DNA of 64,000 nucleotides, taken from contig OZ360226.1 of the NCBI GenBank assembly GCA_977017645.1, forward strand, positions 37,758,001 to 37,822,000, given 5' to 3'. Origin of the DNA: Torpedo marmorata (Eukaryota). Positions within the stretch are counted from its first letter, which is position 1, and the number at the start of each line of letters is the position of its first letter. The notes under the pieces were generated by a model. That model did not search any database. It was not told the origin of the DNA and saw nothing but the letters and a program-made list of their open reading frames with translations. Made by a program: the position numbers and the translations under genes. Shown here in pieces: positions 4,331-49,216 of this stretch.

Positions 4331-4433
4331 CTGTTTCATTTGCTACTTTTCCTGGGGCTGAGGATGAGCCAATTTAACATCCAAAGTGTGCAAAAAATTC
4401 AAATTAGACAGACGAACTGGGACAATGTTTTAA

Positions 4434-5070: not shown

Positions 5071-5169
5071 GACACAAGAGTCAGCTTGTATCGACTCATG
5101 GTCCCTAGACTCCTTAGTTTTATCAACAACCAATACTGCTGGTGAAGGCTGTTATTTGCTCAAAGCCAA

Positions 5170-6130
5170 GTTATCTTTTGACACAACTTTAGTTTTAATA
5201 TTTCAAAGTGGTACTGCTTCTGGAAACCTGGAGGCTGTACACATGACAGTTAACAAATACTGATTCCCAGCTTTTGTCTTGGGCAATGGGCCAACACAAT
5301 CCACAATAACTTTAGAAAAGGGTTAGTCAAAAGCAGGAATGGGTTGTAATGGAGCCACTGGGGGAACCTGATTAGGTTTACCCACAACCTGACAAATGTG
5401 ACATGTCCGGCAAAATGTCACAACATATTTTCTTAAACTAGGCCAATAGAATTGTTTCATAATCTTATACTGTAGTGGCCCGCGACCTACTCCGCAGGCC
5501 GATACAGAGAGCCGTGTACGAACACGGCGATTGCGCAGGCGGTATGTGATTCGGATGGCCCGTTCCCATAGGCCACAACAGCAATGAGGGAATGGGCCAA
5601 TCCCTAAGGATGGATCATGGCCCGACCAATCCTGGGCGTCGCGCCCCATCCGTGACGCAGCAGTCAGGCTTGGCCCGCCTATAAAAGGCAGAGCCGACGG
5701 CAGAATAGGCAGTTCTGTCTTGACGCTCAGAGTGAGTGTATCTCTCTCCTGAGCTCCAGAACTAGAGCGACGACCAACTCGACAACCAACTCGATGACCA
5801 ACTCGACGCGCAGAGCTATAACCGTAGCGAAGCGCTACAATACATAGTTTTCCTTACACCAAGATGACCACCCAAGGGCGTGCTATGGGCCAAGGTTAAA
5901 ATTTCATCCCTATAGGCTTTAGGAACTACAACCTGGTGAGCAACTGCCCATTCTTCACTGGCAGGGATATCAGGTGGTCTCCACTTCCTCATCAACACGC
6001 CTTCCTTGAAATAATAGCCAACTGGCACTTTCTTAATTTCATCATCAGAGAAAGCCTTATCTCTCACTTCAGTAAGATCAGGATCTTTGTTCTGCCCCAC
6101 TATAAACTCTTTTCGGGATAACAACAAATC
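5170..6130 (-). pseudogene. Gypsy integrase N-terminus (HHCC zinc finger and start of core); most of core deleted
   Basis: ILTLAHSTPLGGHLG, FYWPSLRKYV..FCRTCHICQ, PFSKVIVDCVGPLP, RFPEAVPL; interrupted by the solo LTR. Confidence 0.85.
5471..5839 (+). mobile_element. Solo LTR (369 bp) of an unrelated family inserted in the integrase
   Basis: TGTAGTG...CGCTACA termini; TSD ATAC (5467-5470, 5840-5843); CCAAT boxes and TATAAAA at ~5679. Confidence 0.88.
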
Positions 6131-19070: not shown

Positions 19071-20722
19071 CAACCATATAACATTTACAGCACAGAAACA
19101 GGCCAATTCGGCCCTTCTAGTCCATGCCAACACATTCTCCCACCTAGTCCCACTGACCCGCACCTGGCCCATAACCCTCCACACCTCTCTTGTCCATATA
19201 CCTATCCAACTTTTCCTTAAACATTAAAATTGAACCTGCATCTACCACTTCGGCCGGAAGCTCGTTCCACCCTCCTACCACCCTCTGAGTGAAGAAATTC
19301 CCCCTCATGTTTCCTCTAAATTTTTCCCCCTTCAATCTTAATCTATGCCCTCTTGTTTGAATCTTCCCCACTCTCAATGGAAAAAGCCTGTCCACATTGA
19401 CTCTATCTTTCCCCTTCATAATTTTAAATACCTCTATCAAATCACCCCTCAACCTTCTATGCTCCAGGGAATAAAGTCCCAGCCTGTTCAACCTTTCCCT
19501 ATAACTCAAACCCAGAAACCCAGGCAACATTCTTGTAAATCTCCTCTGCACTCTCTCTATTCTGTTTATATCCTTCCTGTAATTCGGCGACCAAAACTGC
19601 ACACAATATTCCAAATTTGGCCTCACCAATGCCTTATACAACTTCAATATGACATCCCAACTCCTATATTCAATACTCTGATTTATGAAGACCAACATAC
19701 AAAATGCTTTCTTCACCACCCTATCTATGTGTGACTCAACTTTCAGGGAATTATGTACCAGAATTCCTAAATCCCTCTGTTCTACTGCACTTCTCAATTG
19801 TCTTCCATTTAACATGTATGACCTTTGCTGATTAATCCTACCAAAATGTAACACCTCACATTTATCAGTATTAAACTCCATCTGCCATGTTTCCGCCCAC
19901 TCTTCTAACTGTCCAATATCCCCCTGTAAGCTTTGATATCCCTCTTCACTGTTCCCAACACCACCAATCTTTGTATCATCTGCATACTTACTAATCCAAT
20001 TTACCACCCTATCATCTAGATCATTAATATATATGACAAACAACAATGGACCCAGTACCGATCCCTGAGGCACTCCACTAGTCACCGGCCTCCAATTTGA
20101 CAAACAATTTTCCACCACTACTCTCTGGCATCTCCTATCCAACCATTGTTGAATCCATTTCACTACTTTGTCATTAATACCTAATGCTTGAACCTTCCTA
20201 ACGAGCCTCTTATGCGGAACCTTGTCAAATGCCTTACTAAAGTCCACATAGACAACATCCACAGCCTTCCCCTCATCAACCCTCTTAGTAACCTCATCGA
20301 AAAACTCTATGAGATTTGTCAAACATGATCTACCACGAACAAAACTGTGTTGACTACTCCTAATCAATGCTTGTCTTTCCAAATAACTGTATACACCATC
20401 TCTAAGAACACTCTCCATTAATTTACCTACCACCAATGTCAGACTCACAGGCCTATAATTTCCAGGTTTACTTTTGGAGCCCTTCTTAAGTAGCGGGACA
20501 ACATGAGCTACCCTCCAATCCTCCAGCACCTCCCCCGTGGCCAGTGACATTTTAAATATTTCTGTCAGAGCCCCCACTATTTGTACACTAACCTCCCTCA
20601 GGGTCCTCGGGAATATCCTGTCAGGACCTGGAGATTTAGCCACCTTTACACTCTTTAAAATAGCCAATACTACCTCCTCATTAATCTTTATATTATCCAT
20701 GACCTCACTGCCAGATTGCCTT
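19071..20722 (-). mobile_element. CR1 LINE, 5'-truncated, young
   Basis: Uninterrupted RT ORF plus CR1 3' tail (gcctgtttctgtgctgtaaatg). Confidence 0.95.
19144..20700 (-). CDS. CR1 ORF2 reverse transcriptase (C-terminal 518 aa; endonuclease lost by truncation)
   Basis: KSPGPD, NYRPVSLT, DFSKAFDKV, GVPQGSVLGP, YADDTK; no stops. Confidence 0.9.
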   Translation of the reverse strand: MDNIKINEEVVLAILKSVKVAKSPGPDRIFPRTLREVSVQIVGALTEIFKMSLATGEVLEDWRVAHVVPLLKKGSKSKPGNYRPVSLTLVVGKLMESVLRDGVYSYLERQALIRSSQHSFVRGRSCLTNLIEFFDEVTKRVDEGKAVDVVYVDFSKAFDKVPHKRLVRKVQALGINDKVVKWIQQWLDRRCQRVVVENCLSNWRPVTSGVPQGSVLGPLLFVIYINDLDDRVVNWISKYADDTKIGGVGNSEEGYQSLQGDIGQLEEWAETWQMEFNTDKCEVLHFGRINQQRSYMLNGRQLRSAVEQRDLGILVHNSLKVESHIDRVVKKAFCMLVFINQSIEYRSWDVILKLYKALVRPNLEYCVQFWSPNYRKDINRIERVQRRFTRMLPGFLGLSYRERLNRLGLYSLEHRRLRGDLIEVFKIMKGKDRVNVDRLFPLRVGKIQTRGHRLRLKGEKFRGNMRGNFFTQRVVGGWNELPAEVVDAGSILMFKEKLDRYMDKRGVEGYGPGAGQWD

Positions 20723-20759
20723 GAATGAGAGGTCCATTTAAATGGACCAATGAGAGGTC

Positions 20760-20867
20760 AATTTAAGACTGATAACAGCAGGAAAGAAACTGCCCTTGAA
20801 TTTGGAGGTTTGTGTTTTCAAGTTCATGCCTGACAAAAGGGAAGGGAAGAAAATGTGACTGGGATGG
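20760..20867 (-). repeat. Old LINE 3' fragment split by the ERV insertion (continues 35193-35560)
   Basis: Sequences flanking the ERV join across the GATGG TSD into one Rex1-like 3' region. Confidence 0.6.
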
Positions 20868-21939
20868 TGTAATGGGAGGGTCATGTGGCCTCTCCAATAG
20901 GCAAGAGATCGGAAGTGATCTCACCTGCCAATCAAGGGTTAGATATGCCCACCTGTGAGGCTGATGCGTGATTGGCCCTCACAGTTGATGTGTGATTGGG
21001 TTTCCTGGTGCCAATCAATGGTTAGATCTGCCCACAGGTGAGGCTGATGTGTGATTGATCCTCGCAGGTCACATGGACGGGCCCTGCATTGTAAAAGCCC
21101 ACCACGTGAAGCAGCTCTCTCTTTGCTGCTCCCTCATGATCATTGCTTTCTTTTTCAATATTTTTATTGGTTTCATCAAATAAATGTTACATAGGTACAT
21201 GACAATAAAATAAAGTATTAACAAATCTTATATAGCAATAAAAATGGTATTGAAACCTACGTTACATTAAAAATAAATTTTTTAAAAACACTATACTAAT
21301 TATCTAAATATCAATCCCCTCCCTTCGGAGGCTACTGGCTTAACACAAACAGTCCACTACTAATAATAAAAAAAATAAAGGTAAACATTGGGATCAAAAA
21401 CCAGAAACTAGTTAATCTTACAAATTTTGAAAGTAATTAAGAAAATAACCCCATAAAGAAACAAAGTTAAGATTCATTTCAGTAGTGGAACATCTAATTT
21501 TTTCCAAAGTCAGACATGCCATCATATCAGACAACCATGAGTATGAGTGGGAGGGACAGCATCTTTCCATCTCATTAATATGGCCCTTCTTGCGATAAGG
21601 GAGGTGAGGGCAACTACTTGGGATTGTGAAGCAGTCAATATCAAACCTGTTGGCCCACTTATTCCAAAGAGAGCAATAAAAGGATTTGGAGTCAAAGTAA
21701 TATTAAGAACTAAAGACAAGGTACGAAATACCCCTTCCCAAAAATTGGAAAGAGAAGGACATAACCAGAACATATGATAGAATGTACCTTCTTCAGTTAT
21801 ACATTTATCGCATTTAGAAGAGAAATTAGAATAGAATTTAGTCAATTGGACTTTGGAATAGTGGGCCCGGTGCACTACCTTAAATTGTAATAATGAGTGT
21901 CTAGCACAAAGAGAGGATGAATGAAACAAAGAGATCAGT

Positions 21940-22610
21940 TATTACAGAAGATGGATCAGATGGAAAATCAAAGCTGAAGGAATAATGTTAAAATACTGGG
22001 ATTACCTGAAGGTTTTGAATCACAAGAACCAACTCAATTTTTTCAGAATTGGCTTATGCAGATATTTGCTTTTGATCAAGCAGTGGAGCTGGAAAGAGCT
22101 CATAGAATTGGAAGACGGAATCAGATAGATCGGAGACCACGTCCTGTTTTGATGAAATGTCTTAGGTATCAAGATAGAGAAAGAATACTAAGATCGGCGA
22201 TTCAGAAATCAAGAGAGAATGGGGCTCCGATGATGATTAATGGTAACAGAGTGTTTTTTTATCCAGACCTAAGTCCAGTGGTGGTTAATAAGCGGAAGGA
22301 ATTTAATGCTACGAAGGAAATATTATGGCAGAAAGGTTATAAGTTTTCGTTTAAATACCCTGCGGCTTTGAGAATTCAAGATGATGGTGATAAATTTCTT
22401 TTGTTTATGGATCCCCAGCAAGCATTTCTTCATGCGCAAAATCTTCCACGTTTGGCTAGAAGCTTTAGCCTTACTCCGCGGCGGCAAGAGCAAGATCAAG
22501 AAATTCAACAAGGACAAGTTGTGTTGCCATCTGCTTCACCAAGAGAAGGAAATATTCTAGTTCAAGTTGAAGAAGAACAAGAAGAACTGGTTTTGGGAGA
22601 AGTTAATTGA
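21940..22610 (+). pseudogene. L1 ORF1 (RRM/CTD part)
   Basis: RNNVKILGLPEG; ELERAHRIG..RPRPVLMKCLRYQDRERIL; VFFYPDLS; FKYPAAL. Confidence 0.85.
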
Positions 22611-22875
22611 ATTTATGCTGTATAGATTTCTATTGATCTGTTGGGGGGAAGTGGACGCATTGGTACTTCTTCCGAAACAATCACCACCTTAGCGGCGAGA
22701 GCTGCTACTCGAACAATGGAGGGGGGTAACACTGGGATAGAAACACCAGTGTTTTTTTCAAGGGAATTTTTCTTTTTTCTATGTCTTTCTTTTACTTTAC
22801 TTGAGGGGAGAATAAGTAGAATGCAATTTAGGAGGGGAACGCTAGTGGACTTGATGGACAGAGAAAGGTTACAAT

Positions 22876-25800
22876 TTGATTATGGTGGATTCTAGAAGTA
22901 TAAATTTAGTAAGTATTAATATAAATTGGCTTAACAACCCAATTAAGAGGAAAAGAACTTTGGCATATATGAAAAAGTTGAAAGTAGATATAGCTTTTTT
23001 ACAAGAAACCCATTTAACAGAGGTTGAACATCAAAAATTAAAAAGAGATTGGGTTGGACATGTGGTAGCTTCTACATTTAATTCTAAAGCTAGAGGGGTA
23101 GCAATTTTAGTTAATAAAAAATTACCCTTTAAGATACAATCAGTAGTGACAGACGTGGCAGGTAGATATGTTTTGGTATATTGTCAGATTTACTCAGAAT
23201 TTTGGACCCTTATGAATTTATATGTCTCAAATCCAGATGATGAACAATTTATTCAAGATGCATTTTTACATTTATCAGATGCTAAGGAAAATATTTTAAT
23301 TGGGGGAGATTTCAATTGTTGTTTAGATTCAATAATGGATAGGACTTCTAGATCGTCTGTTAGACCTAAATTAGTTAAAAGAATTATTAGTTTGATGAAA
23401 GATTTGAACTTAATAGATATCTGGAGGAAATTGAATCCTAGAGAGAAAGATTATTCATTTTATTCTTTTAGACATGATTCATATTCTAGGATAGATTTAT
23501 TTTTAATATCTTCACAAATTCAAGATAGAATATCACAGGTATCATATAAAGCGAGAATAATTTCAGACCATTCGCCTTTGCTAATGACTTGTATAATCCC
23601 GGAAAAAGAGAAAACTATATTTAATTGGAGATTTGAATTAGGGGAAAAAGCTCATAAGGTTTTAGCATGGCAATTGACAAAAGAGCAAGTTTCTAAAACT
23701 ATAAATGCTATAAAGAAAAAAAATGCTGGTGAAATAACTTATAAACCCCAAGAAATAAATGAATCTTTTAAAGATTACTATCAGAATTTATATAGATCTC
23801 AGGTTGATCATGATGATTTGAAGATTAATAGATTTCTATCTAGAATTACTTTACCTAAATTGAATATTCAGAATAAAAATTCTTTGGATCTACCCTTTAC
23901 GATGAGAGAAGTTAATGAGGTTCTATCAACGTTGAAAAGTGGTAAATCCCCTGGTGATGATGGATTTCCAGTAGAATTTTATAAGGAATTTAAAGATTTA
24001 ATAATACCTCCATATATGGAAGTATTGAATCAAATTACGGAAACCCATTTATTACCGAAAACATTTTGAATGCTATTATTACAGTTATACCAAAGAAAGA
24101 TAGAGATGTATTAAAAACTGAGTCATATAGACCTATTTCTTTATTAAATGTAGATTATAAAATAATGGCAAAAATTTTGGCTAATAGAATAGCTAAATAT
24201 TTACCAAATTTGATACATTCAGATCAAGCTGGCTTTATTAAAAATAGATATTCAAAAGATAATATAGCTAGATTACTAAGTTTAATTAATTTACATAAAA
24301 AGAAACAGGATTTACCACTGGTGGTAACGCTGGATGCAGAAAAGGCCTTTGATAGATTAGAATGGAATTTTTTATTTAAGGTGTTAGAGAAATTTGGTTT
24401 TGGGAATATTTTTATAAATTGGATTAAAACTATATATAGAGAACCTACAGCTAAAGTAATTACAAATGGACAAATATCGCCAAAATTTCCTTTAACGCGC
24501 TCTACGAGGCAGGGATGTCCCCTATCACCAGCCCTATTTGTTTTGGCAATAGAACCTTTGGCTGAATTGATTAGGATAGATCCTAATATAGTAGGGATTA
24601 AAGTAGGTATGGAAGAACATAAGATTAGTCTGTTTGCAGATGATGTATTAATATACATCACTTCAACAACTAGCTATTATATTAACAGAATATGGTGAAA
24701 TATCTGGGTATAAAATTAATTCAGATAAAAGTGAAATAATGGCTTTATCTCTAGGTGATTATACTAGATGTAGAGAGGTTACGGAATTTAAGTGGGCAAA
24801 AGAAGGAATTAAATATTTGGGAGTTAAAGTGGATACAAAATTAGAAAATTTATATAAATTAAATTATGTACCTTTATTTACGAAAATAAAGAAGGATTTG
24901 GAAAATTGGAAAGATTTGCCTATAACTTTAATGGGAAGAGTAAATTGTATTAAGATGAATATTTTTCCAAGTATTCAATATCTTTTTCAATCAATTCCTT
25001 TTGGAATTCCAAATTTTTTTTTTAAAGATTTAAAGTTTATTATTAGGAATTTTTTATGGAAAGGGAAGTTAGCAAGAGTAAGTATGGATAAGTTAACATG
25101 GAATTATGAGATGGGAGGATTGCAACTTTCTAATTTTCAATATTATTATAAAGCAGCTCAATTAAAATTTGTTAATGAATTTTTTGATTTAACTAAAACT
25201 TCTGCCTGAGTTAATATAGAATTAAATAATATAGGATTAAATTATAAAGAGGATATTATTTATAAGTGGAATTCTAAATTATTATTAGTAAGAAAGAAAA
25301 ATTCACCGATTATTAAACATTTGTTGGAAATATGGACACAGGTAGATAAAGAAATAGGTGGGAAAGGGTTAATTTCTTTAAATATGCCATTATATCAAAA
25401 TCCACTTTTACCATTTACTATGAATAATCAGTTATTGAAAGTATGGTTTCAAAAAGGAATTAAGAATTTTAAAGATTGTTTTGAGGCTGGAAGAATTGTT
25501 ACATTTCAAAGATTGAAGGAAAAATTTAATGTAATAGATAATACATGGTTAGCTTATTATCAAGTTAAAGCTTTTTTGATTGAGAAATTAGGGGATGATT
25601 TGATTGCACCAAGACAAAATGAGTTAGAATTATTAATAACTAAAGCAAATGTCAATAAGTTTATTTCTCAAATGTATAAATTATTTCAGAGAAAAATGCC
25701 TAAAGTAGGATTACATAAATCAAGATTAAAATGGGAATTAGATTTAAATGTTAATATAGCTGAAAATCATTGGAAAGATTTATGTAAATTAAGTATGACT

Positions 25801-26309
25801 AAAGTTATTAATGTTAGATATAGATTAGTACAATATAATTTTTTCCATCAATTATATTTAACACCAAAAAATTAAAGAAATTCAATCCGACATTATCGGA
25901 TTTGTGTTTTAGATGTAAGAGTGAAGTAGGTTCTTTTGTTCATTCTACATGGTCATGTCCAAAAATTCAAGATTTTTGGTTGAAAGTTAAGAATTTTTTA
26001 GACAGAGTTTTTAATGTTATGTTTCCAATGGATCCTATGTTATTTTTATTCGGAGATATTAGAAAATTTAGTATTAGGAATAGATTGAATATGTATCAGG
26101 TAGAATTTGTACAAATTGCTTTAGCTGTTTCAAAAAAATGTATTGCTATTACTTAGAAATCAGATTTAGATGTAAGTTTAGATAGGTGGCATGCAGAACT
26201 CCGTTCGTGTATTCCACTGGAAAAGATTACTTATAATTTACGTAATAAGTATCATTCTTTTTTGAAAATTTGGAGCCCATATATGAGAGTTATGGGTTTA
26301 AGGATTTGA
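22876..26309 (+). pseudogene. L1 ORF2 (APE endonuclease-RT-CCHC), frameshifted
   Basis: LQETH, GGDFN, SRIDLFL, SDH; [27 protein letters not shown]; CFRC..HSTWSC; split over several ORFs. Confidence 0.92.
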
Positions 26310-28885
26310 AATCTCTAGATATCAGGTCTTTTGGCGAGTTTAACCTCCATGATAAAATTAGTTTGTAGATGGTTCTCCCCTTACTATTAATCTATCTTTC
26401 TTTTTCTTTCTTTTTTACTATATATATATTTTTTTTTATTATTCCTTTTTTTTAGAATAGTGGGGATGGGGGGGGGTGGTTTGGGAAGGGTGGGAGGGTA
26501 TGGGGGGAGGAAATATATATCACATGTATTTTGAAAGTTACATATTTTGATTTATGTATTTTGTGATTTAAAAATTTAAATAAAATTTAAACAAAATTAA
26601 AAAAAAGAGAGGATGAATGCACTCGCTTCAAAATAGAATTCCATGTAGTTTCAGAAAATAACTGTTGAAAATCCTGTTCCCATATTTTTTTCAAATTCTG
26701 TCCAGGGAACTGTCCCCAGAATTTATAAGTAATTCATAAAGGCCAGATACCACCATTTTATAATTAGGTTGAAAATTATAAATCATCCCTATCATATTAG
26801 GTTCCAGGTCTTCAGGGAGCTTCAAAATTAAATAATTCAAAAAGCTTCTAACCTGTAAATAATGAAAGAAATTATGTCTAGGTATTGAAAATTTGGTGGA
26901 TAATTGTTCAAAAGAGGTAAGATTGGATACCTAAATTTGACCAATGATGATACCCTATATCGTGAACTGAAGTTAAAAGGAATTACCTAAAATAGGACTA
27001 ATCTATGGTACCCAAAATGTTTCCTAAATTGAAACCAGATTCTCAATGTATGTCTAACAACAAAATTATCAGTTAATTTGGAGGCCAAGAAAGGTAAAGG
27101 TGCTCCAAGTATTGAAAGAAGAGAATACTTTTTAGTGGATTTAATTTCTAAATTAATCCATCTTGAAGCACCTAAATTTTCCTTGTGATGAATACAAAAA
27201 ATAATGTATCTAATATTAGCTGCCCAATAATAAAACCTAAAGTTGGGTAATGCCAAGCCCCCGTTCTTTTTAATATTTTGAAAGAAAACTTTTTTAAGAT
27301 GGAGGTGCTTATTTTTCCATATAAAAGAAGATATGATAGAATCCAATGAATCAAAAAAGGATTTGGGAACAAAAGCAGGTACAGCTTGAAAAATGTATAA
27401 AAATTTAGGAAGGATATTCATCTTGATAATATTGATGCATCCAATTAATGTCATCGAAAGAGGGGACCACTGTGTCAAGGACTTCTTGATATGACTCATT
27501 AAGGTAAGAACATTTTCTTTAAACAAATTATTGAATTTCTTGGTAATAGTAATACCTAGATAGTTGAACTGATTGTTAGCTATTTTAAAAGGAATAGAGG
27601 AATCTTAAGAGCAGGAAGAACTCAAAATGAACAACTCACTCTTCTGCAAATTCAATTTATATCCTGAAAATTGCCCGAATTGATAAAGAAGTGATAAAAT
27701 AGATGGAATCGATCTGTCAGGATTCGATATATACAACAAAAGATCATCTGCATAAAGAGACACTTTATGAATATTTCCTGCTCTTGTAATTCCTGAAATA
27801 TCAACCGATTACCGAAAAGCCACTGCTAATGGTTCTAAAGCCAAATTCAATAATGATGGGCTTAAAGGACATCCCTGTCTGGTACCACGATACAACTTAA
27901 AAGGTTTGGATTTAATTGAGTTAGTAAAGATTGAAGCTGTACGAGATAAATATATCAGTTTAATCTAATTTATAAATTGGGGACCGAAATTAAATTTCTC
28001 TAACACACTAAATAAGTATTCCCATTCAACTCTATCAAAAGCTTTTTCAGCTCCTAAGGAAATAATACATTCAGAGGACAAAACTGTAGGAGAATAAAGA
28101 ATGTCTAACAAACGACAGATATTAAATTGTAAGTAACATTCCTTAATAAACCCAGTTTGACTAGATGCATAATATTCTCTAAACTACGAGCTAAAATCGT
28201 AGACAGTATCTTATTGTCAATATTTAAGAGGGAAATTGGTCAATAGGAGAAACAGTCTAATGGGTCCTTATTTTTTTAGCAATAAGATAATTTGAGGCAT
28301 CATAAAAAGTTTCTGTCAACTTCCCACTAACTAAGGATTGAGTAAAGACAGCATCCAAATGGGTTATAAGTAAATGGGAAATGGTTTATAAAAGTCCACT
28401 GGGAAGCCGTCGGGAACAGGGACCTTGCCAGACTGCAAAGAGTTAATAGCTGTTACAATCTGCTGCTCAGAGATAGGCTATTCCAGCTTTAATTATTCTC
28501 TGAAGAAACTGAAGGAATAGTCAAACTATCCAGGAATTGCTGAAGAGAATTTTGGTCTTTGATCGAATCAGAGCTGTACAACTTAGAGTAGAACCGAGAG
28601 AAAGTGTCATTTATTTCAACATGATCATTAGCAATCTTACCATCGTCTCAACGAATCTCAGTAATAAGCCGTTTAGCTGTATAATTTTTAATTTGGCTAG
28701 CTAAAATTTTTCCTGGACGTGCCCTGCATTGTAAAAGCCCATCACGTGGAGCAGCTCTCTCTTTGCTGCTCCCTCAAGATCATTGCTGAACTCCAGGCCA
28801 CGGGCAGCACAGGAGGGCCAATTGCGATGGACCTGCCCTGGATCCTGAGCCATGGGTGACACTAAGAACAGTTTCATGTGTATAT

Positions 28886-29177
28886 ACTTGTTTAGTTACT
28901 CGATATCCCGTGCCTGATGGTGATGGGCAGAGTAGATTTAACCCTCATTTATTTTACTTGGTATACTGTGCCTGTGGGTGGTGAGCACTGTAGGTTTACC
29001 CCCGTTTAGTTACTCGGTCTACCGTGCCTGTGGGTGGTGGTTACTGTTAGTTTAACCCCCGTTTAGTTACTCGGTCTACCGTGCCTGTGGGTGGTGGTTA
29101 CTGTTAGTTTAACCCCCGTTTAGTTACTCGGTCTACCGTGCCTGTGGGTGGTGGTTACTGTTAGTTTAACCCTTGTT
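28886..29177. repeat. 57-bp tandem repeat (~5 copies) inside the ERV LTR
   Basis: gtttagttactcgg recurs at 29004, 29061 and 29118; only ~1.3 copies in the 3' LTR remnant. Confidence 0.92.
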
Positions 29178-29374
29178 TCACAATCAGGAGTTTAGATTGT
29201 TTAGCAGTGTTTTATTTGCACCATGTGTAGTTATTTGTGTATTATTGCTGTGCATTTGAGTGTGTGCCCTGTTGTGAATTCTCCTATGTCTCAATAAAGA
29301 CTGTAGTTGAATACTAACATATCTCCAGCCTTGGTTCTCTTTGAACCCGTCGAACCTATTCTGTTCGTAACAAA

Positions 29375-29394
29375 TGGTGCTGCGAGCAGGGTTC
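29375..29394 (+). promoter_or_regulatory. Primer-binding site, tRNA-Ser-like
   Basis: TGGTGCTGCGAGCAGGGTTC 2 nt after the LTR end; close to the complement of vertebrate tRNA-Ser(TGA/CGA) 3' ends. Confidence 0.7.
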
Positions 29395-29422
29395 AGGGGG
29401 TCTCAACTGGATACACAAGGCT

Positions 29423-29870
29423 GTGATGCTTTTCACGATACTAAACAGCATGTGTGTGGGTCTCCTGTTGTTTGTGTGTGCCCTTCTACGTGCCCTTGTG
29501 AACAGAACTAACAGGAAGGGCCCCATGGTTAGAGAAGGTAGAATCCAAGGATGGTTAGCTGGAAAAACTGTGAGGGAGACGATCTACTTGCTCGAGGGGC
29601 CAGAATATGTAGAAAGGGGAACACGTGCTCGGTTCCGAAAGATGGACATGAAAGGCAGAACTAAAGTCAGAGCAGGGATCGACCAGTGGGTGGGACCCTC
29701 CGCTCCACTGCCGTAGGATTGGGGGTGGTCTCCCAGCAGATTTGTTTGGTGGCCCTTTCCCGGTAGGGAGACCCGATGCCCTATATCTCTATGGCTGCAC
29801 ACTGGGGAAATGGGAACACCCAGCGGTGGCTGACACTTGTCGACACCGGTGTTGAGAACACTCTGACTAA
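29423..29870 (+). pseudogene. ERV gag-like remnant (ends PSAPLP*) and aspartic protease N-terminus
   Basis: ORF 29423-29716; frame from 29767 reads GDPMPYISMAAHWGNGNTQRWLTLVDTGVENTL. Confidence 0.7.
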
Positions 29871-30454
29871 ACTGGAGAGAGTGAGTTTCCCTCATTCACA
29901 GGATGACACTTCTGCGGGCGCTGGAAGTGGTGATGGCAGCACTGAACGGTGATTGGAGGAGACTACGCATGGCTGACGTATATGCCGGCAGAGTCAACAA
30001 CCTTGAACGTTGCCAAAGGACTGCCACGAATACTGATCCCTGCTGACACTGAAAACAGAGACTCTGGGGGAAAACTGTCCAGCTCTGCGGGTTTTGATAT
30101 TCCTGTTGATAGGCCTATCAATAACAACTCAAAGACTGTGAGAGCGAGTGAATCATAGGCTTTTATTGGCTAAGAATGGAGCTGAGCTTCCTCCTCGATC
30201 AGGTCCGGACTGAAGGGGGGTGGCCGAGATACAGTGGCCTTTATTCAGGTGAGGAAAGGGGAGGGATTACCTGGACACCCAAGGGAGGGGAGGGAGTAGC
30301 CATCAGTCCGGCCCGCAGTACCTATACGTACCACCAATACAAGCACAGTGGTTTACCACATTCACCCCTCCTTTTTAAAAAGAGTCCAGCGGGGTGACGT
30401 GACCACTCCATTTACACAAAAAATATATACATATATACATACAGACCCTCCTTT

Positions 30455-33400
30455 TCACAGGTCGAGGCGATCCGGCGGCCGAATTTTCCGCTGTGACCTG
30501 CGTAATGGCGGGTCGGGCTGTGGTGCTGGGGAAGATATTAGTGATGGGGGAGGTGGTAGGGTCGTCTGTGCCGTCGCCTCCTGCCTGGCCTCTCGGAACG
30601 ACTGCGGTGCCGCTGAGGGGGCGGGGTCTAGCACATCGGGTGGGGCGTTAGGAAGAGGTTGCTGCGTGTTCTGTGGTACGTGGACTTGCCCGTCGGAATG
30701 CCCAACTGGCGCCCCATCAGGCGGCAGGTCTCTGATGGAGACGGTGTCTTCTCGTCCATCCGGGAAGACCACGTACGCATACTGGGGGTTGGCGTGCGCC
30801 AACTGCACCCTCTGAACCGTCGGTTCATATTTGCTGCTCCGAAGGTGGTTCCGGAGCAGCACTGGTCCCGGGGACATCAGCCAGGCAGGTAGGGAGGTCC
30901 CGGTGGTCGACTTCCTAGGGAAAGAAAGAAATCGTTCATGAGGGGTTGCGTTGGTGGAAGTGCACAAATGGGACCGGATAGAGTGGAGGGCTTCGGGGAG
31001 AACATCCTGCCAGCGGGAGACCGGCCAGCCCTTTGACTTAAGGGCTAGGAGCGCGGCCTTCCACACCGTGGCGTTCTCCCTTTCCACCTGTCCGTTTCCT
31101 CGGGGGTTGTATGCTGTTGTCCTGCTAGTGGCGATGCCTCGGTCCTGCAGGTACCGGCGCAGCTCCTCACTCATAAAAGCTGCTCCCCGGTCGCTATGTA
31201 TGTAGTTTGGGAACCCAAACAGCGTGAATACCTGGTGGAGAGCTTTTATGGTTGAGGTAACTGAGGTGTCGGGGCAGGGGATGGCAAAGGGGAACCGCGA
31301 GTACTCGTCAACAATGTTTAGGAAGTACACGTTGCGGTTCGTGGAGGGGAGGGGCCCCTTGAAGTCAATACTAAGACGTTCAAAGGGGCGCGTGGCTTTG
31401 ATCAGCTGTGCCCTGTCCGGGCGGTAGAACTGAGGTTTGCACTCTGCGCAAACACGACAGTCTCTGGTCAAAGCCCTGACCTCTTCCAGGGAGTATGGCA
31501 GGTTCTGTGCCTTCACGAAGTGAAAAAGCCTGGTAACTCCTGGGTGACAGAGGAGGTCATGTAGGGAGTGTAATCGGTCGATCTGCGCGCTGGCGCACGA
31601 TCCCCGGGATAGAGCGTCTGAGGGCTCATTGAGCTTCCCGGGCCGGTAGAGGATGTCGTAGTTATAGGTGGAGAGTTCTATTCTCCACCTCATGATCTTA
31701 TCGTTTTTGATCTTACCCCGCTGCTGGTTGCTGAACATAAATGCTACCGAGCGTTGGTCGGTCAGCAGGGTAAAATGCTTGCCGGCGAGATAGTGCCTCC
31801 AGTGCCTGATTGCTTCCACGATGGCCTGGGCTTCTTTCTCCACCGCGGAGTGCCGAATTTCGGGGCCTTGAAGGGTGCGCGAGAAAAACGCCACCGGCCT
31901 TCCCGCCTGGTTGAGGGTAGCAGCCAGCGCGAAGTCCGACGCGTCACTCTCTACCTGGAAAGGTATCTCCTCATCCACCGCGTGCATTGTTGCTCGCGCA
32001 ATGTCCCCTTTTATAAGGTCAAAGGCCTTACGTGCCTCCGAGTCAAGGGGAAATACGGTGGATTTTACCAGGGGTCGGGCCTTATCTGCATAATTCGGTA
32101 CCCACTGTGCATAATATGAAAAGAACCCGAGGCATCGCTTGAGTGCTTTGGGGGTGGAGGGTAGTGGAAGTTCCAGTAGGGGGCGCATGCGATCGGGGTC
32201 TGGCCCAATCACCCCGTTCTCTACCACGTACCCCAAAATCGCGAGGCGCGTGGTACCGAACACACATTTATCTTTATTGTATGTTAAGTTAAGTGCTTTA
32301 GCCGCCTGCAGGAACTTCCGGAGGTTGGTGTCGTGATCCTGGCGATCCAGCCCACAGATGGTGATATCGTCCAGGTACGGGAAGGTGGCTTTAAGTTTAT
32401 ACACGTCCACAATGTTATTCATCTCCCGCTGGAACACAGAAACACCGTTGGTAACCCCGAACGGGACCCGCAGGAAGTGGAACAGTTTCCCGTCAGCCTC
32501 AAACGCAGTGTACTGGCGGTCCTCCCGGCGGATAGGGAGCTGATGGTACGCGGACTTCAGGTCAATCGTGGAAAAGACCTTGTACTGGGCGATCTGATTA
32601 ACCATGTCCGCTATCCTTGGTAGCGGGTATGCGTCCAACAAGGTGAACCGGTTAATCGTCTGACTGTAGTCCACCACCATCCTCCTCTTGGCCCCTTTTA
32701 CCACGACCACCTGGGCCCTCCAGGGACTATTGCTCTTTTCAATAATCCCCTCTTGTAGCAACCTCTGAACCTCCGCCCTGATAAACGCCCTGTCCTCCGA
32801 ACTGTATCGCCTGCTCTTGGTTGCAACAGGCTTACAGTCCGGGGTCAGGTTGGCGAATAGCGACGGAGGCGAGATCTTAAGAGTGGAGAGGCCACAGGTA
32901 GTCTGGGGCTCATTATTAAGGAACTGGGGGTTGACTACAGTGATCGCAGGGTGGGGACCATCGTACCGCATAGTGACACTGCGCAAGTGACTCTGAAAAT
33001 CAAGCCCCAACAATACAGGTGCACATAAACGATTCATTATTAACAAAGAAAAATGTTTGTACTTAGTCCCCTGTACCACAATATCAGCCACACAAGCCCC
33101 CCGGATGTCTGTTGTGTGTGCCCCAGACGCCATGGCCACCTTCTGGCTTACCGGTATAATCGTGAGGCCACAGCGCTGGACAGTGTCCGGGTGGATGAAG
33201 CTCTCCGTACTGCCCGTATCGAAGAGACAGGTGGTCTTGTGTCCCTCCACCAGAATGTCCATCATGGATCTTGCTAACTGGTGAGGGATGCTCTGGTCGA
33301 GGGTGACTGACGCAAGAGTTGCGATGTATTCATCGTCTTCTTCTTCCACCGCCGACAAGTATTCATCGTCTTCTTCTTCTTCTTCCACCGCCGACAAAGA

Positions 33401-34537
33401 TGGCCGCCCCCGCGGCTCGCACGTGTCGCTGCAAGATGGCCGCCCCCGTGGCTCGCACGTGTCGCTGCTGCCGCTGCTGTAAAATGGCGGCGGTAGTATC
33501 GCTGGAAGTACGGATGCGGGTGGTGCAGGAAGTGCCAGCATCAAAGATGGCCGCCTCCGCGGCTCACACAAGGCCGGTTCAGGAAGTGCCAGCATCAAAG
33601 ATGGCCGCCCCCGCGGTTTGCACGAGGCCGGTTCCGGAAGTGCCAGCGTCAAAGATGGCCGCCCCCGCGGCTCGCACGAGGTCGACGCTGGAAGCTGCTG
33701 CAGGTTCAGGTAGGATGGCTGCCCCCGCAGCTCGCACGCGGCGCTACTCGGGCCCGGGTGCGACTTGGAGCGGCAGGCCTTCATGTAATGGCCTTTCCTG
33801 CCGCATCCGGAACAAGTTGCGTCGCGGGCCGGGCAGCGCTTCCGCGGGTGTTTCTCAAGCCCGCAGAAGTAACACTTCTCGGGCTCGCGGCTGGCGGCAG
33901 CGGCGGTGAGGATCGCGGTCGCGATCGGGTCAGCACGGATGGCGGCGGCGGCGGTCAGTTCGTTCACCGGGCTAGGGGATGGGGCCGACCACGTTGCGGG
34001 CTGGGCCTGCATGGCATCGGCGTTCCGCTGCGCGGTCTCCAGCGTGTTGACCATCGCTACCGCCCCCGAAAAGTCCAGGTCGACGTGCTCTAATAGTCTC
34101 TGGCGCACATCTACCGACCTGAGCCCCATGATGAACGCATCTCGCTCCACCACTCGCAAGTGTTCCTCCGCAGTCTGGGCTTTACAGTCGCACGCCCGTG
34201 CAAGTGACTGGATGGCCCTGACATATTCCACAGTCGATTCCCCGGTTCGCTGCCTCCGTGAGTAGAGCCGGTATCGCGCGTAGACCGCGTTGACGGGCGC
34301 TAGGTAGATTCCTTTCAGGGCCTCGATGGCCCCCGTGTAGGTTCGGTGTTCTCTTACCGTCGTGTACACCCGATGGCTCACCCTGGAGGTAAGGACTCTC
34401 AGTTGTTCCTCTTCACTTTCGGCTTTCACTGTGAACATGAACGATTCGAGGCAGGCCAGCCAGTGTTCAAAGATGTTACTAGCCTCGGGGGCTAGGTGGT
34501 CGAGGTCTAGGATAGCTGGTCGTAGTGCTCCTTCCAT
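30455..34537 (-). CDS. Gag-Pol polyprotein (gag, double zinc knuckle, PR, RT, RNase H, IN)
   Basis: Open frame of 1375 codons, likely ATG at 34537 (MEGALRP); CYFCG..H..CPA..CSGCGRKGH..C; FDTGS; YLDD; VESDAS; HPG..C..C; SIDFKGP; HSDRG; NGQVER. Confidence 0.95.
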   Translation of the reverse strand: MEGALRPAILDLDHLAPEASNIFEHWLACLESFMFTVKAESEEEQLRVLTSRVSHRVYTTVREHRTYTGAIEALKGIYLAPVNAVYARYRLYSRRQRTGESTVEYVRAIQSLARACDCKAQTAEEHLRVVERDAFIMGLRSVDVRQRLLEHVDLDFSGAVAMVNTLETAQRNADAMQAQPATWSAPSPSPVNELTAAAAIRADPIATAILTAAAASREPEKCYFCGLEKHPRKRCPARDATCSGCGRKGHYMKACRSKSHPGPSSAACELRGQPSYLNLQQLPASTSCEPRGRPSLTLALPEPASCKPRGRPSLMLALPEPALCEPRRRPSLMLALPAPPASVLPAILPPPFYSSGSSDTCEPRGRPSCSDTCEPRGRPSLSAVEEEEEDDEYLSAVEEEDDEYIATLASVTLDQSIPHQLARSMMDILVEGHKTTCLFDTGSTESFIHPDTVQRCGLTIIPVSQKVAMASGAHTTDIRGACVADIVVQGTKYKHFSLLIMNRLCAPVLLGLDFQSHLRSVTMRYDGPHPAITVVNPQFLNNEPQTTCGLSTLKISPPSLFANLTPDCKPVATKSRRYSSEDRAFIRAEVQRLLQEGIIEKSNSPWRAQVVVVKGAKRRMVVDYSQTINRFTLLDAYPLPRIADMVNQIAQYKVFSTIDLKSAYHQLPIRREDRQYTAFEADGKLFHFLRVPFGVTNGVSVFQREMNNIVDVYKLKATFPYLDDITICGLDRQDHDTNLRKFLQAAKALNLTYNKDKCVFGTTRLAILGYVVENGVIGPDPDRMRPLLELPLPSTPKALKRCLGFFSYYAQWVPNYADKARPLVKSTVFPLDSEARKAFDLIKGDIARATMHAVDEEIPFQVESDASDFALAATLNQAGRPVAFFSRTLQGPEIRHSAVEKEAQAIVEAIRHWRHYLAGKHFTLLTDQRSVAFMFSNQQRGKIKNDKIMRWRIELSTYNYDILYRPGKLNEPSDALSRGSCASAQIDRLHSLHDLLCHPGVTRLFHFVKAQNLPYSLEEVRALTRDCRVCAECKPQFYRPDRAQLIKATRPFERLSIDFKGPLPSTNRNVYFLNIVDEYSRFPFAIPCPDTSVTSTIKALHQVFTLFGFPNYIHSDRGAAFMSEELRRYLQDRGIATSRTTAYNPRGNGQVERENATVWKAALLALKSKGWPVSRWQDVLPEALHSIRSHLCTSTNATPHERFLSFPRKSTTGTSLPAWLMSPGPVLLRNHLRSSKYEPTVQRVQLAHANPQYAYVVFPDGREDTVSIRDLPPDGAPVGHSDGQVHVPQNTQQPLPNAPPDVLDPAPSAAPQSFREARQEATAQTTLPPPPSLISSPAPQPDPPLRRSQRKIRPPDRLDL
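33330..33740. repeat. In-frame tandem repeats between gag and protease
   Basis: 57-bp units encoding CEPRGRPSL(T/M)LALPEPAS, 33-bp SDTCEPRGRPS units and LSAVEEE..DDEY repeats. Confidence 0.88.
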
Positions 34538-35192
34538 CAGAAGTTCTTTAGCCAATAAAATTGATAGGCCTATCAATAACAACTCAAAGACTGTGAGAGC
34601 GAGTGAATCATAGGCTTTTATTGGCTAAGAATGGAGCTGAGCTTCCTCCTCGATCAGGTCCGGACTGAAGGGGGGTGGCCGAGATACAGTGGCCTTTATT
34701 CAGGTGAGGAAAGGGGAGGGATTACCTGGACACCCAAGGGAGGGGAGGGAGTAGCCATCAGTCCGGCCCGCAGTACCTATACGTACCACCAATACAAGCA
34801 CAGTGGTTTACCACACCTGTGTTGGGGGAGGCCTGGAGGTAATGATCGCCAACCAACTTCGCCCCACACCAGAAACAGCCACACATCCAGTGACCGTCAG
34901 TGGGTTGGGTGTCTCAAGGGCGGGTCTTAACCCTTGTTTAGTTCATCGGAATGCCGTGCCTGTGGGTTGTGGGTACTGTTGGTTTAACCCTTGTTTCACA
35001 ATTGGGAGTTGAGATTGTTTAGCAGTGATTTACTTGCACCTGATGTGTAGTTATTTGTGTATTATTGCTGTGCATTTGAGTGAGTGCCCTGTTGTGAATT
35101 CTCCTGTGCATAAATAAAGACTGTAGTTGAATACTAACACGTGTCCAGCCTTGATTCTCTTTGAACCCATTGAACCTATTCTGTTCATAACA

Positions 35193-35560
35193 GATGGATC
35201 CTTTAATATGTTGGGAGCTTTGTCAAGACAGCAAGAGGTATAGACAGGGTCAATGGAGGGGAGAGGCGCTTGAAGTGCATTCACAACTCTGAAGTTTTTT
35301 GCGGTCTGAAGCAAAATAGTTCTCCTGACCAAACAATGATGCATTTGGACAGGATATTTTTGATGGTGCATCTGTAAAAATTGATCAGAGATTACAGGAC
35401 ATGCTAAATTTCCTAAAGCTTCTGAATAAGTAGTCGGTGGTGGGCATTTTTAGTTGTCGCATCGATGTAGTTGGACCAAGGCAGGTTGTTGGTGATATTT
35501 CCTCCTTAGAATTTGAAGCCCTCAACCATCTCTACCTCAGCACCATTGATATATGCAGGG
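35193..35560 (-). repeat. Old LINE fragment (continuation of 20760-20867)
   Basis: Degenerate Rex1-like C-terminal coding (LDKAPNILKDP). Confidence 0.55.
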
Positions 35561-45214: not shown

Positions 45215-48200
45215 TTGATAATCAAAAAACATGTGGAAAAGGTTGAACAATCTCCTGTGTTAGACCCATACACTAATCAGACACCTAAAGGCACTGATTT
45301 GTTACTATCCCGACAGGAGCTAATAGCAAGGCAAAAGGAGGATCCTGATTTTGCTGAGGTGAGGGATAAGGTTCTCTCTGAAGAGGAGATTAAGAAAGTG
45401 CCAGTGGATTATTATGAAAAAGATGGGGTGTTGATGAGAAAGAGGAGACCATGTGATGTTCCTGCCAGTGAAGAATGGACAGTAGTGCAGCAGGTTGTGA
45501 TCCCTAAAGTATATATGGATGAAATAATAACTTTGGCTCATAGCACAACCTTAGGTGGTCACCGTGGTGTGAAGAAAACTATACGGAAGATAATGAAACA
45601 ATTTTATTGGCCCAGTTTGAGAAGGGAGATTGTAAGCTTTTGCCGGGCCTGTCATGCTTGTCAGGAAGTGGGTAAACCTAATCAGGGTCCCCCGGTGGCA
45701 CCCTTTCAACCTATCCCTGCTTTCAGTGATCCTTTCTCGAGAGTGATTGTGGGCTGTGTTGGCCCACTTTCCCAAAACCAAAGCAGGGAGTGAGTATTTG
45801 TTAACAATTATGTGTGCAGCCACCAGATTTCCAGAGGCCATTCCTCTGAGAAACATTAAAGCAAAGGCAATTGTAAAGGCTATGGTAAAGTTTTTCACCT
45901 TGGTAGGTTAGCCAAGGGAAATTCAATCAGATCAGGGTAGTAATTTCATGTCAGGCGTATTCCAACAAGTGGTTGATAGACTGGGAGGTAAACAGATTGT
46001 ATCCTCTGCGTACCATCCAAAAAGTCAATTGGCCTTGGAGAGGTTTCATTCGACTTTGAAAAACATGATTAGAACTTATTGTTGTGAGAAGGAAAAGGAT
46101 TGGGATGAGGGGGTTCATTTTTTTTTTTTTTTTTTTAAATTATTTTATTTAAATTTTAAATCACACAATACACAAATCAAAATATATAGTTTCCAAAATA
46201 CAAGTGATATAAATTTCCTTCCCCCAAACCCTCCCATCCCACCCTAACCCCCCCCCCCACCCCACTATTCTAAAAATAGTTAAAAAAAAAGAATGAAAAA
46301 GAAAAATAGATTAATAGATTAATAGTGAGGAGAGAACCATCTAAAAACTTATTCTATCCTGGAGGTTAAACTCGCCGATAGACCTGATTTCTAGAGATTT
46401 CAAAACCTTAAACCCATAATTCTCATATATGGGCTCCAAATTTTTAAAAAAGAATGATATTTATTACGTAAGTTGTAAGTAATCGTTTCCAAAGGAATAC
46501 ACGAACGAAGTTCTGCATGCCACCTATCTAAACTTAAATCTAAATCTGATTTCCAAGTAATAGCAATACATTTTTTTGAGACAGCTAAAGCAATTCGCAA
46601 AAATTCTACCTGATACATATTCAATCTATTCCTAATACTAAATTTTCTAATATCTCCAAATAGAAATAACATAGGGTCCGTTGGAAACATAACATTAAAA
46701 ACTCTATCTAAAAAATTCTTAACTTTCAACCAAAAATCCTGAATCTTTGGACATAGCCATGTAGAATGAACAAAAGAACCTACTTCATTCTTACATCTAA
46801 AACACAAATCCGACAATGTCGGATTAAATATCTTTAATATTTTTGGTGTTAAATATAGTTGATGAAAAAAATTATATTGTACTAATCTATATCTAACATT
46901 AATAACTTTAGTCATACTTAACTTACATAAATCTTTCCAATGATTTTCAGCTATATTAACATTTAAATCTAATTCCCATTTTAATCTTGATTTATGTAAT
47001 CCTACTTTAGGCATTTTTCTCTGAAATAATTTATACATTTGAGAAATAAACTTATTAACATTTGCTTTAGTTATTAATAATTCTAACTCATTATGTCTTG
47101 GAGCAATCAAATCTTCTACTAATTTCTCAATCAAAAAAGTTTTAACTTGATAATCTAACCATGTATTATCCAATACATTAAATTTTTCCTTCAATCTTTG
47201 AAACGTAACAAATCTTCCAGCCTCAAAACAATCTTTAAAATTCTTAATTCCTTTTTGAAACCATGCTTTCAATAATTGATTATCCATAGTAAATAATAAA
47301 AGTGGATTTTGATATAATGGCATATTTAAAGAAATTAACCCTTTCCCACCTATTTCCAACAAATGTTTAATAATCGGTGAATTTTTCTTTTTTACTAATA
47401 GCAGTTTAGAATTCCACTTATAAATAATATCCTCTTTATAATTATCTCCTATATTATTTAATTCTATATTGACCCAAGCAGAAGTTTTATTTAAATCAAA
47501 AAAATTGTTAACAAATTTTAATTGAGCTGCTTTATAATAATATTGAAAATTAGGAAGTTGCAATCCTCCCATCTCATAATTCCATGCTAACTTATCCATA
47601 CTTACTCTTGCTAACTTCCCTTTCCATAAAAATTTCCTAACAATAATCTTTAAATCTTAAAAAAATTTCTTTGGAATTCCAAAAGGAATTGATTGAAAAA
47701 GATATTGAATTCTTGGAAAAATATTCATCTTAATACAATTTACTCTCCCCATTAAAGTTATAGGCAAATCTTTCCAATTTTCCAAATCTTTCTTTATTTT
47801 CTTAAATAAAGGTATATAATTTAATTTATATAAATTTTCTAATTTTGTATCTACTTTAACTCCCAAATATTTAATTCCTTCTTTTGCCCACTTAAATTCC
47901 GTAACTGCTCTACGCCGAGTGTAATCACCTTGAGATAAAGCCATTATTTCACTTTTATCTGAATTAATTTTATACCCAGATATTTCACCATATTCTGTTA
48001 TTATGATAGCTAATTGTTGAAGTGATGTAATAGATTTCATCATATATATTAATACATCATCTGCAAACAAACTAATCTTATGTTCTTCCATACCAACTTT
48101 AATCCCTACTATATTAGGATCTATCCTAATCAATTCAGCTAAAGGTTCTATTGCCAAAACAAATAAAGCTGGTGATAGAGGACATCCCTGTCTTGTAGAA

Positions 48201-49216
48201 CGAGTTAAAGAAAATTTTGATGATACTTGTCCATTTGTAATTACTTTAGCTGTATGTTCCTTATATATAGTTTTAATCCAATTTATAAAAATATTCCCAA
48301 AACCAAATTTCTCTAACACCTTAAATAAAAAATTCCATTCTAATCTATCAAAAGCCTTTTCTGCATCCAACGTTACCACCAATGGTAAATCCAGTTTCTT
48401 TTTATGTAAACTAATTAAACTTAATAATCTAGCTATATTATCTTTTGAATATCTATTTTTAATAAAACCAGCTTGATCTGGATGTATCAAATTTGGTAAA
48501 TATTTAGCTATTCTATTAGCCAAATTTTTTGCCATAATTTTATAATCTACATTCAATAAAGAAATAGGTCTATATGACTCAGTTTTTAATACATCTCTAT
48601 CTTTCTTTGGTATAACTGTAATAATAGCATTCAGAAAAGTTCTTGGTAATAAATGGGTTTCCGTAATTTGATTCAATACCTCCATATATGGAGGTATTAA
48701 TAAATCTTTAAATTCCTTATAAAATTCTACTGGAAATCCATCATCACCAGGAGATTTACCACTTTTCAACGTCGATAAAACTTCATTAACTTCTCTCATC
48801 GTAAAAGGCAAATCCAAAGAATTTTTAATGAGGGGGTTCATTTGTTGTTATTTGCAGCAAGGGAGTCTGTCCAAGAATCATTTGGTTTTAGTCCATTCGA
48901 GTTAGTTTTTGGACATGAGGTGATAGGTCCTTTAAGGTTATTAAAAGAACAGTGGATTAATAGTGATGTGCATTTAAATCTGTTGGATTATGTTTCCAAA
49001 TTTAAGGATCGGTTGCATAAAGCTTGTGACATGGCAAAGGAGACTTTAAATGCCACTCAACAGAGAATGAAGGTTTGGTATGATCGAACGGCCAAGATGA
49101 GAACTTTTAAACCTGGTGAGAACGTATTAGTTCTGTTTCCCACACATTCAAATCCTCTTAGTGCAAGATTTTCAGGACCCTATGGAGTTAAGTCAAAAAT
49201 TAATGAGGACAGATGA
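45215..49216 (+). pseudogene. Gypsy integrase of element 2, split by L1
   Basis: AHSTTLGGHRG..CHACQ, IQSDQGSNF, SAYHP..LERFH, SPFELVFG, GPY motif (RFSGPY). Confidence 0.88.
46121..48827 (-). mobile_element. L1 family B, 5'-truncated
   Basis: poly(T) at ~46121; TSD ATGAGGGGGTTCATTT (46105-46120, 48828-48843); ORFs 47657-48841 and 46400-47599 nearly identical in protein to 23870-26309. Confidence 0.95.

Follow-up and report, generated by a model that had tools for sequence, protein, structure and literature searches.

The closest described element to the lineage studied here is XtERV-S of Xenopus tropicalis, an intact and young endogenous retrovirus (ERV) that has been reported, alongside related ERVs of African frogs, with 19 deleted copies and more than 140 solo long terminal repeats (LTRs) (PMC8278194, Yedavalli et al. 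2021). The same account describes ERV-S as env-bearing and devoid of dUTPase and presents the combination of a class III ERV with a gamma-type transmembrane (TM) protein; ERV-L is described as lacking env, and the eutherian MaLR elements as lacking both pol and env (PMC11359688). Here we analyse a 64,000-nt stretch of the genome of Torpedo marmorata (hereafter the window, always meaning the whole stretch), in which positions 20868 to 35192 are occupied by a real, dead and heavily deleted copy of a class III ERV that shows no sign of function. The best explanation, which we hold with considerable confidence, is that this copy belongs to a family of deletion derivatives without pol that descends from an env-bearing class III ERV and was likely mobilised by the proteins of complete relatives.

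As characterized in PMC8278194, XtERV-S resembles this lineage in its ERV-L-related gag-pol, a reverse transcriptase (RT) with the YIDD active site, a tRNA-Ser primer, TGT/ACA ends, a 5-bp target site duplication (TSD), an in-frame stop between gag and pol, a gamma-type TM (with an immunosuppressive domain and CX6CC in XtERV-S), a CXXC motif near the start of the surface protein, internally deleted copies and solo LTRs. The described XtERV-S differs in having a dUTPase after the integrase, whereas none was seen in the ray-type relatives, and its deleted copies keep only pieces of gag, whereas the deleted family of Torpedo keeps env (PMC8278194). This family is also old, decayed and far larger, with 699 and 2,700 candidates against 19 deleted copies, although these are first-look totals in a 6.2-Gb genome, 40 of which were scored in either search, and not copy numbers. 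The RT clade of the relatives of the window copy comprises ray-type sequences, unlike XtERV-S. ERV-S and HERV-S, the latter primed by a serine tRNA, are similar by layout (class III, env present, dUTPase absent, serine primer), a comparison made with their published description. The likeness to mammalian ERV-L (MuERV-L, HERV-L), whose primer is tRNA-Leu, lies in the RT clade, the pattern at the N-terminus of the protease and the 5-bp TSD, to which can be added that the gag of a ray relative was automatically named Fv1-like. In contrast to the family described here, which has env remnants and no dUTPase, ERV-L is reported to lack env (PMC11359688) and has a dUTPase. With ERVL-MaLR, the family shares the status of pol-less, class III-derived LTR elements with abundant solo LTRs and presumed dependence on a helper; however, it keeps scraps of env and protease without a coherent open reading frame (ORF), whereas MaLR carries a single ORF derived from ERV-L gag. 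The family is thus an analogue of MaLR, not a member.

In six chondrichthyan genomes, clade III was reported to account for 2,843 RT loci, the majority there (PMC11089739), and clade Huo is given as present in all major vertebrate lineages (PMC6001957). ERVs with a gamma-type env have been described from six cartilaginous fish, with a class III example from ERV-SA.a-Ppe (bioRxiv 10.1101/2021.11.23.469661), and lineage I of CmiERV clusters with snakehead retrovirus (PMC4422223). The original prediction, made from the sequence of the window alone, had called such lineages sparsely described in elasmobranchs; this is not borne out for clade III at large, given the majority reported in PMC11089739, but it fits the present lineage, of which we found no published description, although the supplements of the surveys (PMC6001957, PMC11089739 and the bioRxiv report) may list it, and Repbase and Dfam were outside our scope.

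Structure of the element

Two L1s and one gypsy element, together with their duplications, account for 12,354 of the 14,325 bp of the element (by coordinate arithmetic, the L1 stack and its duplication take up 7,640 bp, the gypsy element and its TSD 4,714 bp), and their removal leaves 1,971 bp. This remainder begins with TGTAAT, ends with TAACA and is flanked on both sides by GATGG (Table 1); the chance of such a match between random 5-base flanks is about 1 in 1,000. After the L1 stack is spliced out, the 5′ LTR measures 865 bp (280 + 585), whereas the 3′ LTR is reduced to its final 266 bp, 88.9% identical to the 5′ LTR, and the polypurine tract is gone. The primer site agrees with the 3′ ends of genomic tRNA-Ser genes plus CCA, with 19 of 20 positions matched in L074 (TGA) and L076 (CGA) and 18 of 20 in L071 (TGA); here and below, L-numbers denote loci or sequence records and P-numbers denote proteins used as references. 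These results agree with the original prediction of about 2 kb bounded by TG/CA and a GATGG TSD, hidden under some 12 kb of nested insertions, with an LTR of about 865 bp and a tRNA-Ser-like primer binding site.

The two env remnants had escaped the original prediction. The stretch that holds the final pol codons and the beginning of env scores 85–99 against the corresponding region of three relatives, and none of 150 shuffles reached these values for any of them. The short ORF that had been noticed (123 codons, 29345–29716, ending with PSAPLP and a stop) is indeed present, but is put together from fragments of leader and gag that are out of frame with one another. Its PSAP, previously likened to a late domain, lies two codons before the gag stop of the family, so that its position is genuine gag; XtERV-S has PSAP near the gag end (PMC8278194). 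A late-domain role is no more than possible, the exact word being found before the gag stop in the window and in one of 14 other comparable copies. The variants are PSTL, PTTP, TSAP and TSTP, some of which could represent CpG decay of PSAP.

Pol-less copies and their junctions

The 729-bp internal stretch of the window copy yielded 699 first-look candidates, of which 40 were scored, and the first 280 bp of the LTR yielded 2,700, the 40 scored being 82–89% identical. No class III RT was found in any of the 20 family loci fetched as 10-kb stretches around internal matches. In eight of these loci the internal region, from primer site to purine tract, spans only 995–1,341 nt; a primer site within two mismatches was present in 14 and the TM motif ALDYLL...G...VV.K..CTYIP in 13. 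The purine tract of the short copies is of the same sequence type as that of the pol-bearing relatives. Among the 20 best LTR matches, 19 had no internal sequence and appear to be solo LTRs, and one was followed by a primer site. Perfect 5-bp TSDs flank six of the 19 solo-like LTRs and two more show a match in four of five positions; perfect TSDs of 4 or 6 bp were not found in any of the 19.

The deletion that joins the protease to the end of pol removes about 4 kb, and its spacing of 75–76 nt is the same in the window and in four loci on four other contigs; these five loci share no flanking sequence beyond diverged repeats. A longer piece of the protease is kept by four further loci (L026, L028, L031 and L039), three of which have about 180 nt of it. 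In a shorter type, represented by five loci, the leader is joined to the pol end 75–77 nt from the primer site. Because of the shared deletion junctions and the absence of RT in all 20 family loci, the amplification of the short copies as non-autonomous units is supported, and the earlier notion of a possibly MaLR-like, non-autonomous provirus stands in this respect but not with regard to env, the remnants of which are kept, unlike in MaLR. Short words are shared by the two sides of each junction, namely CACAC by the protease and the pol end, and ACTAACC by the leader and the pol end in the short type, so the deletions would have arisen by template jumps of RT between short repeats. Splicing was considered as the cause and set aside because the breakpoints lie within short repeats upstream of any AG.

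Recurrence, which the original prediction had proposed to check, does not extend to every deletion. The gag gap of about 590 nt at 29561 is private to the window copy, no other match spanning it, and so is the junction of env with the 3′ LTR, which is spanned by the window alone among the 40 scored loci. The loss of the purine tract probably post-dates integration because a copy without the tract could not be reverse-transcribed in its present form.

Different parts of the window copy point to different affinities within the family. In the tree of the env segment, the copy falls with 13 copies that lack gag and protease, apart from five copies that bear them (100/100). Likewise, the 90 nt preceding the primer site are closest to those of L025, L034 and L035 (71–77 identical positions), compared to 51–61 for L021–L023, L026, L031 and L039, although the remaining short copies score lower. 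However, inspection of the alignment by eye showed that the clean diagnostic sites of the leader, five in number, are all of the type that bears gag and protease. The simpler reading, to which we give somewhat more weight, is that two pol-less subfamilies recombined, through co-packaged RNAs, to form the window copy. Alternatively, the copy could have branched off early within the short subfamily, without recombination, and have retained the gag and protease remnant and an older leader that were lost from later copies. The nested series of deletions, with a longer protease in L026, L028, L031 and L039, 33 codons in five loci and none in the short type, is compatible with such a branch, and the env tree, which is a star, still allows a basal position; but the long env branch separating the window from the gag- and protease-bearing copies (73–77% identity, versus 77–85% for the gag end and protease), the five leader sites and the 90 nt leading up to the primer site all speak against it. 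Taken on its own, this alternative appears doubtful, and for the mosaic step, the only part of the best explanation that it concerns, it comes second to recombination between pol-less subfamilies.

It is improbable that a complete class III provirus of the ordinary kind integrated here and later lost pol and other parts by chromosomal deletion, without any non-autonomous phase. In favour of this scenario, at least two deletions of the window copy, the gag gap and the env-to-3′-LTR junction, are private, and decayed pol-bearing copies are common in the genome, given that all 150 scored matches to the RT query lie at 64–100%. Nevertheless, the identical breakpoint of the 4-kb pol deletion in five loci on five contigs, whose flanks share nothing beyond diverged repeats, largely refutes this scenario as far as pol is concerned, and the LTR and env of the window copy are 78–91% like those of pol-less copies compared to about 62–75% for pol-bearing ones.

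Phylogenetic placement

The 33-residue protease peptide of the window copy matched 39 of the 216 proteins retrieved by class III searches at E ≤ 0.001, the best being gag-pol proteins of the stingray Hemitrygon (2e-11). At the same threshold, all 120 class I proteins remained unmatched (best E 2.4), and there was no match to two gypsy Pols, to the class I Pol of the same genome, or to L109 or L110. Hence the protease, as predicted, matched proteins of class III type only.

Since RT is absent from the window copy, the placement relies on that of its pol-bearing relatives. The RT tree comprises 33 rows and 248 columns; decayed rows were projected on one reference, an X standing at each break. 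Of 58 rows, 25 were left out, six as short, poorly filled or redundant and 19 later, among them P0295, which matched in part only and fell outside class I in an earlier tree. Six loci of Torpedo and one Hemitrygon protein form a group (99/99) that is joined by another Hemitrygon protein and one of Narcine (90/91), and these ray sequences are the nearest named proteins to the family. All of them belong to a clade (99/99) that holds P0017, a dUTPase-bearing Pol of ERV-L type whose cluster includes a Mus musculus protein, together with a baboon RT and proteins of birds, turtle, amphibian, lungfish, bichir and killifish. In approximately unbiased (AU) tests, a grouping of the Torpedo RTs with class I was rejected (p 0.001), as was one with gypsy (see below). 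Also rejected (p 0.001) was a clade with L109, a 10,688-nt IMG/VR record that is presumably snakehead retrovirus, which would set these relatives apart from CmiERV lineage I. The comparisons support the assignment of the window copy to class III, on the ERV-L/ERV-S side, in line with the original prediction.

A non-autonomous Ty3/gypsy or class I/epsilon element bearing an ERV-L-like protease motif by chance is very improbable: although the peptide has just 33 residues and gave nothing useful in Pfam or Protein Data Bank (PDB) searches on its own, the env TM remnant is of class I type and the nested gypsy element also makes a 5-bp TSD, this possibility is contradicted by the RT tree, the AU tests and the peptide search, by relatives that have env and a separate RNase H after the tether, by the primer site, gag, protease and env that tie the window copy to pol-bearing loci, and by the previous description of class III elements with a gamma-type TM (PMC8278194).

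A PDB search with the RT of one relative returned the foamy virus protease-RT first (E 3e-18) and murine leukaemia virus next (2e-16), values too close to classify. The foamy protease family PF03539 had no match in the genome, yet none in the controls either. Foamy viruses and lokiretroviruses (A9 protease or F-type env) were also considered and set aside, the env being of gamma type; neither group is in the tree. Five gag-only gene models of the related ERV in the stingray Hemitrygon akajei (P0208, P0209 and P0212–P0214) are named Fv1-like by NCBI; with intact gag frames, they could be young copies or co-opted genes. The Torpedo genome also harbours a young class I ERV family (for example, L077–L083), with 1,232 Gag_p30 candidates, of which the 150 scored are nearly all equal-scoring with long open frames; across the RT region, its Pol resembles ERV proteins of birds and snakes at 57–64%.

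Pol-bearing relatives

The protease peptide as query produced 1,368 candidates, of which 150 were scored and 20 fetched (L051–L070), 10 for long open frames and 10 for score. Compared by tblastn with the class III Pol P0005, these loci show, to varying extents, the order protease, RT, tether, RNase H and integrase. The YIDD active site is present in the frames of L060 and L061, and the frames across the junction place pro in the pol frame. No dUTPase was detected in the pol-bearing relatives, the matches to P0005 ending near residue 955, before its dUTPase, and the integrase core of L061 and L063 being followed immediately by the C-terminal domain and next by env. Both of these loci have CWVC near the env start, and the env stretch of L063 matches TLV_coat above the cut-off; the parent would accordingly have had a gamma-type envelope. 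A primer site within two mismatches was found in eight of the 20 loci.

An in-frame TAG lies 29 codons before the HW motif of the protease in 12 of 26 readable copies and at the same position in the window. Because XtERV-S has the same layout (PMC8278194), the parent may have made its Gag-Pol by reading through this stop. The window copy matches the pol-bearing elements collinearly, from the primer site through gag and the protease to the end of pol and env, which supports its derivation from them.

Two members of another, pol-bearing subfamily, L052 and L059, carry tandem proline-rich repeats at the end of gag, with up to 25 P[TS]AP words in L052. Separately, protease matches that score equally and share one 189-codon frame recur on the small contigs C40, C194, C245, C468 (four places), C618 and C645, and L067 adjoins a tandem array, which suggests that a class III fragment is carried within a large repeated unit.

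Model of origin

Taken together, these results translate into a model in which the parent would be a class III ERV with env, a serine primer, stop read-through and a gamma-type envelope. Pol-less forms would arise from it by RT template jumps between short repeats, and their RNA would be packaged, reverse-transcribed and integrated in trans by the proteins of complete class III relatives. Two pol-less subfamilies would then recombine to yield the window copy. After integration, an L1 entered the LTR, a second L1 entered the first one and, most recently, the gypsy element arrived. With its env TM and polypurine tract gone, together with the larger part of the 3′ LTR, the copy has lost the ability to multiply as an LTR element.

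Several observations weigh against this model. Among 402 candidates, of which 40 were scored, just five loci span the protease-to-pol-end junction of the window, so the subfamily to which the copy itself belongs is small. Of the five short-junction loci, L033 and L038 lie next to each other and are nearly identical, probably through local duplication. TSDs were found for few two-LTR copies (perfect in L026 and L057, four of five positions in L030 and L061, poor in L034 and L025), automatic end-finding having given no ends for most of the 22 loci. At the position of the gag stop, 10 of the 26 copies have W or Y, nine of these having been picked for long open frames, while another has K and three have indels; 11 of these others, most of them picked for open frames, differ from TAG by one base. 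The rejection of gypsy is the weakest of the AU tests (p 0.028), and the tree contains no foamy virus, lokiretrovirus, class II or labelled HERV-S rows and includes decayed ones; branching within the class III clade is tentative. Mobilisation by helper proteins in trans is an inference. Finally, a search with the LTR, as the original prediction had proposed, did not lead to full-length copies: 19 of its 20 best matches are the solo-like ones, no pol-bearing copy with a close LTR was found, the LTR of L061 sharing only about 60 bp at 79% with that of the window.

A broader interpretation, towards which we lean slightly, is that rays carry their own MaLR analogue: independently of mammals, an ERV-S-like class III ERV would have given rise to pol-less subfamilies with thousands of LTRs that shrank stepwise by template jumps and recombined with one another, the window copy being one such recombinant. 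The copy adds an apparently undescribed elasmobranch branch to the env-bearing ERV-L/ERV-S group, extends the XtERV-S layout of class III gag-pol with a gamma-type TM beyond frogs and indicates that class III ERVs have had parasites without pol in hosts other than mammals. The formation of such parasites is documented, in a usable way, by the nested series of deletions and by the likely recombinant. Given that class III ERVs of cartilaginous fish and their deleted derivatives are already known, this would be useful rather than surprising to the specialist.

Age and later insertions

The two LTRs of the window copy differ by 0.11 over 264 sites, or 0.094 over 193 unique sites (17–27 differences). 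At the shark rate assumed in PMC4422223 (2.2e-10), this corresponds to about 210–250 million years, and at the mammalian rate quoted there, to 21–25 million years, the rate being an assumption. The relative order of insertions is safer than any absolute age: the provirus was followed by the outer L1 (4 differences in 74 bp) and then by the inner one, and the gypsy element (no differences in 254 bp) is young.

Table 1. Coordinates of the element copy and of the sequences inserted into it (positions in the window)
Feature	Position	Strand	Remarks
Left TSD	20863..20867	+	GATGG
5′ LTR, first 280 bp	20868..21147	+	TGT at start; contains a short repeat and, near 21090, a TATA-like word
L1 stack within LTR	21148..28713	.	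outer 5′-truncated minus-strand L1 enclosing plus-strand L1
Duplicate of LTR bases 21074–21147	28714..28787	+	74 bp, 4 differences, flanks outer L1
5′ LTR, last 585 bp	28788..29372	+	about five 57-bp tandem repeats; AATAAA 29293–29298; ends ACA
tRNA-Ser primer binding site	29375..29394	+	2 nt past LTR
Leader and first gag codons	29395..29560	+	about 590 nt found in closest copies missing at 29561
gag 3′ remnant	29561..29716	+	ends PSAPLP and TAG at gag stop position of the family
Class III protease, first 33 codons	29767..29865	+	has DTG; out of frame with gag stop; cut by pol deletion
pol last codons and env start (surface part)	29866..30106	+	fused to what is left of the protease; lacks about 4 kb spanning protease, RT, RNase H and integrase
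Ty3/gypsy element, young	30107..34815	-	254/254 identical LTRs; 1,389-codon frame; TSD CCTGT 30102–30106 / 34816–34820
Further env surface remnant	34821..34926	+	stops at private 3′ deletion
3′ LTR, last 266 bp	34927..35192	+	env TM, polypurine tract and about 600 bp of LTR missing
Right TSD	35193..35197	+	GATGG

The 74-bp segment duplicated around the outer L1 is present as a single copy in the other LTRs of the family; the usual L1 TSD is much shorter. The inner L1 (21924–26603) is flanked by a 16-bp duplication (21908–21923 / 26604–26619), and the stack has domain matches to endonuclease, RVT_1 and zf-RVT. L1-like insertions also adjoin the TATA-like word in L025 (about 840–1723) and L027 (about 3848–5505, both in oriented coordinates). 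They fall in the stretch that is duplicated in the window, in two of 13 LTR stretches that were chosen for looking interrupted, and a preference of L1 for insertion near this word of the LTR is possible.

The unbroken frame of the gypsy element encodes protease, RT, RNase H and integrase. It has no tRNA-like primer site; instead, the 13 nt past its 5′ LTR are exactly complementary to its own LTR at position 188, an arrangement that resembles that of the self-priming Tf1/sushi elements. Just left of the ERV copy, an RT frame on the minus strand (19144–20757) belongs to what is presumably the CR1 family. A second copy of the inner L1, 90–97% alike, lies inverted about 20 kb downstream (46121–48827).

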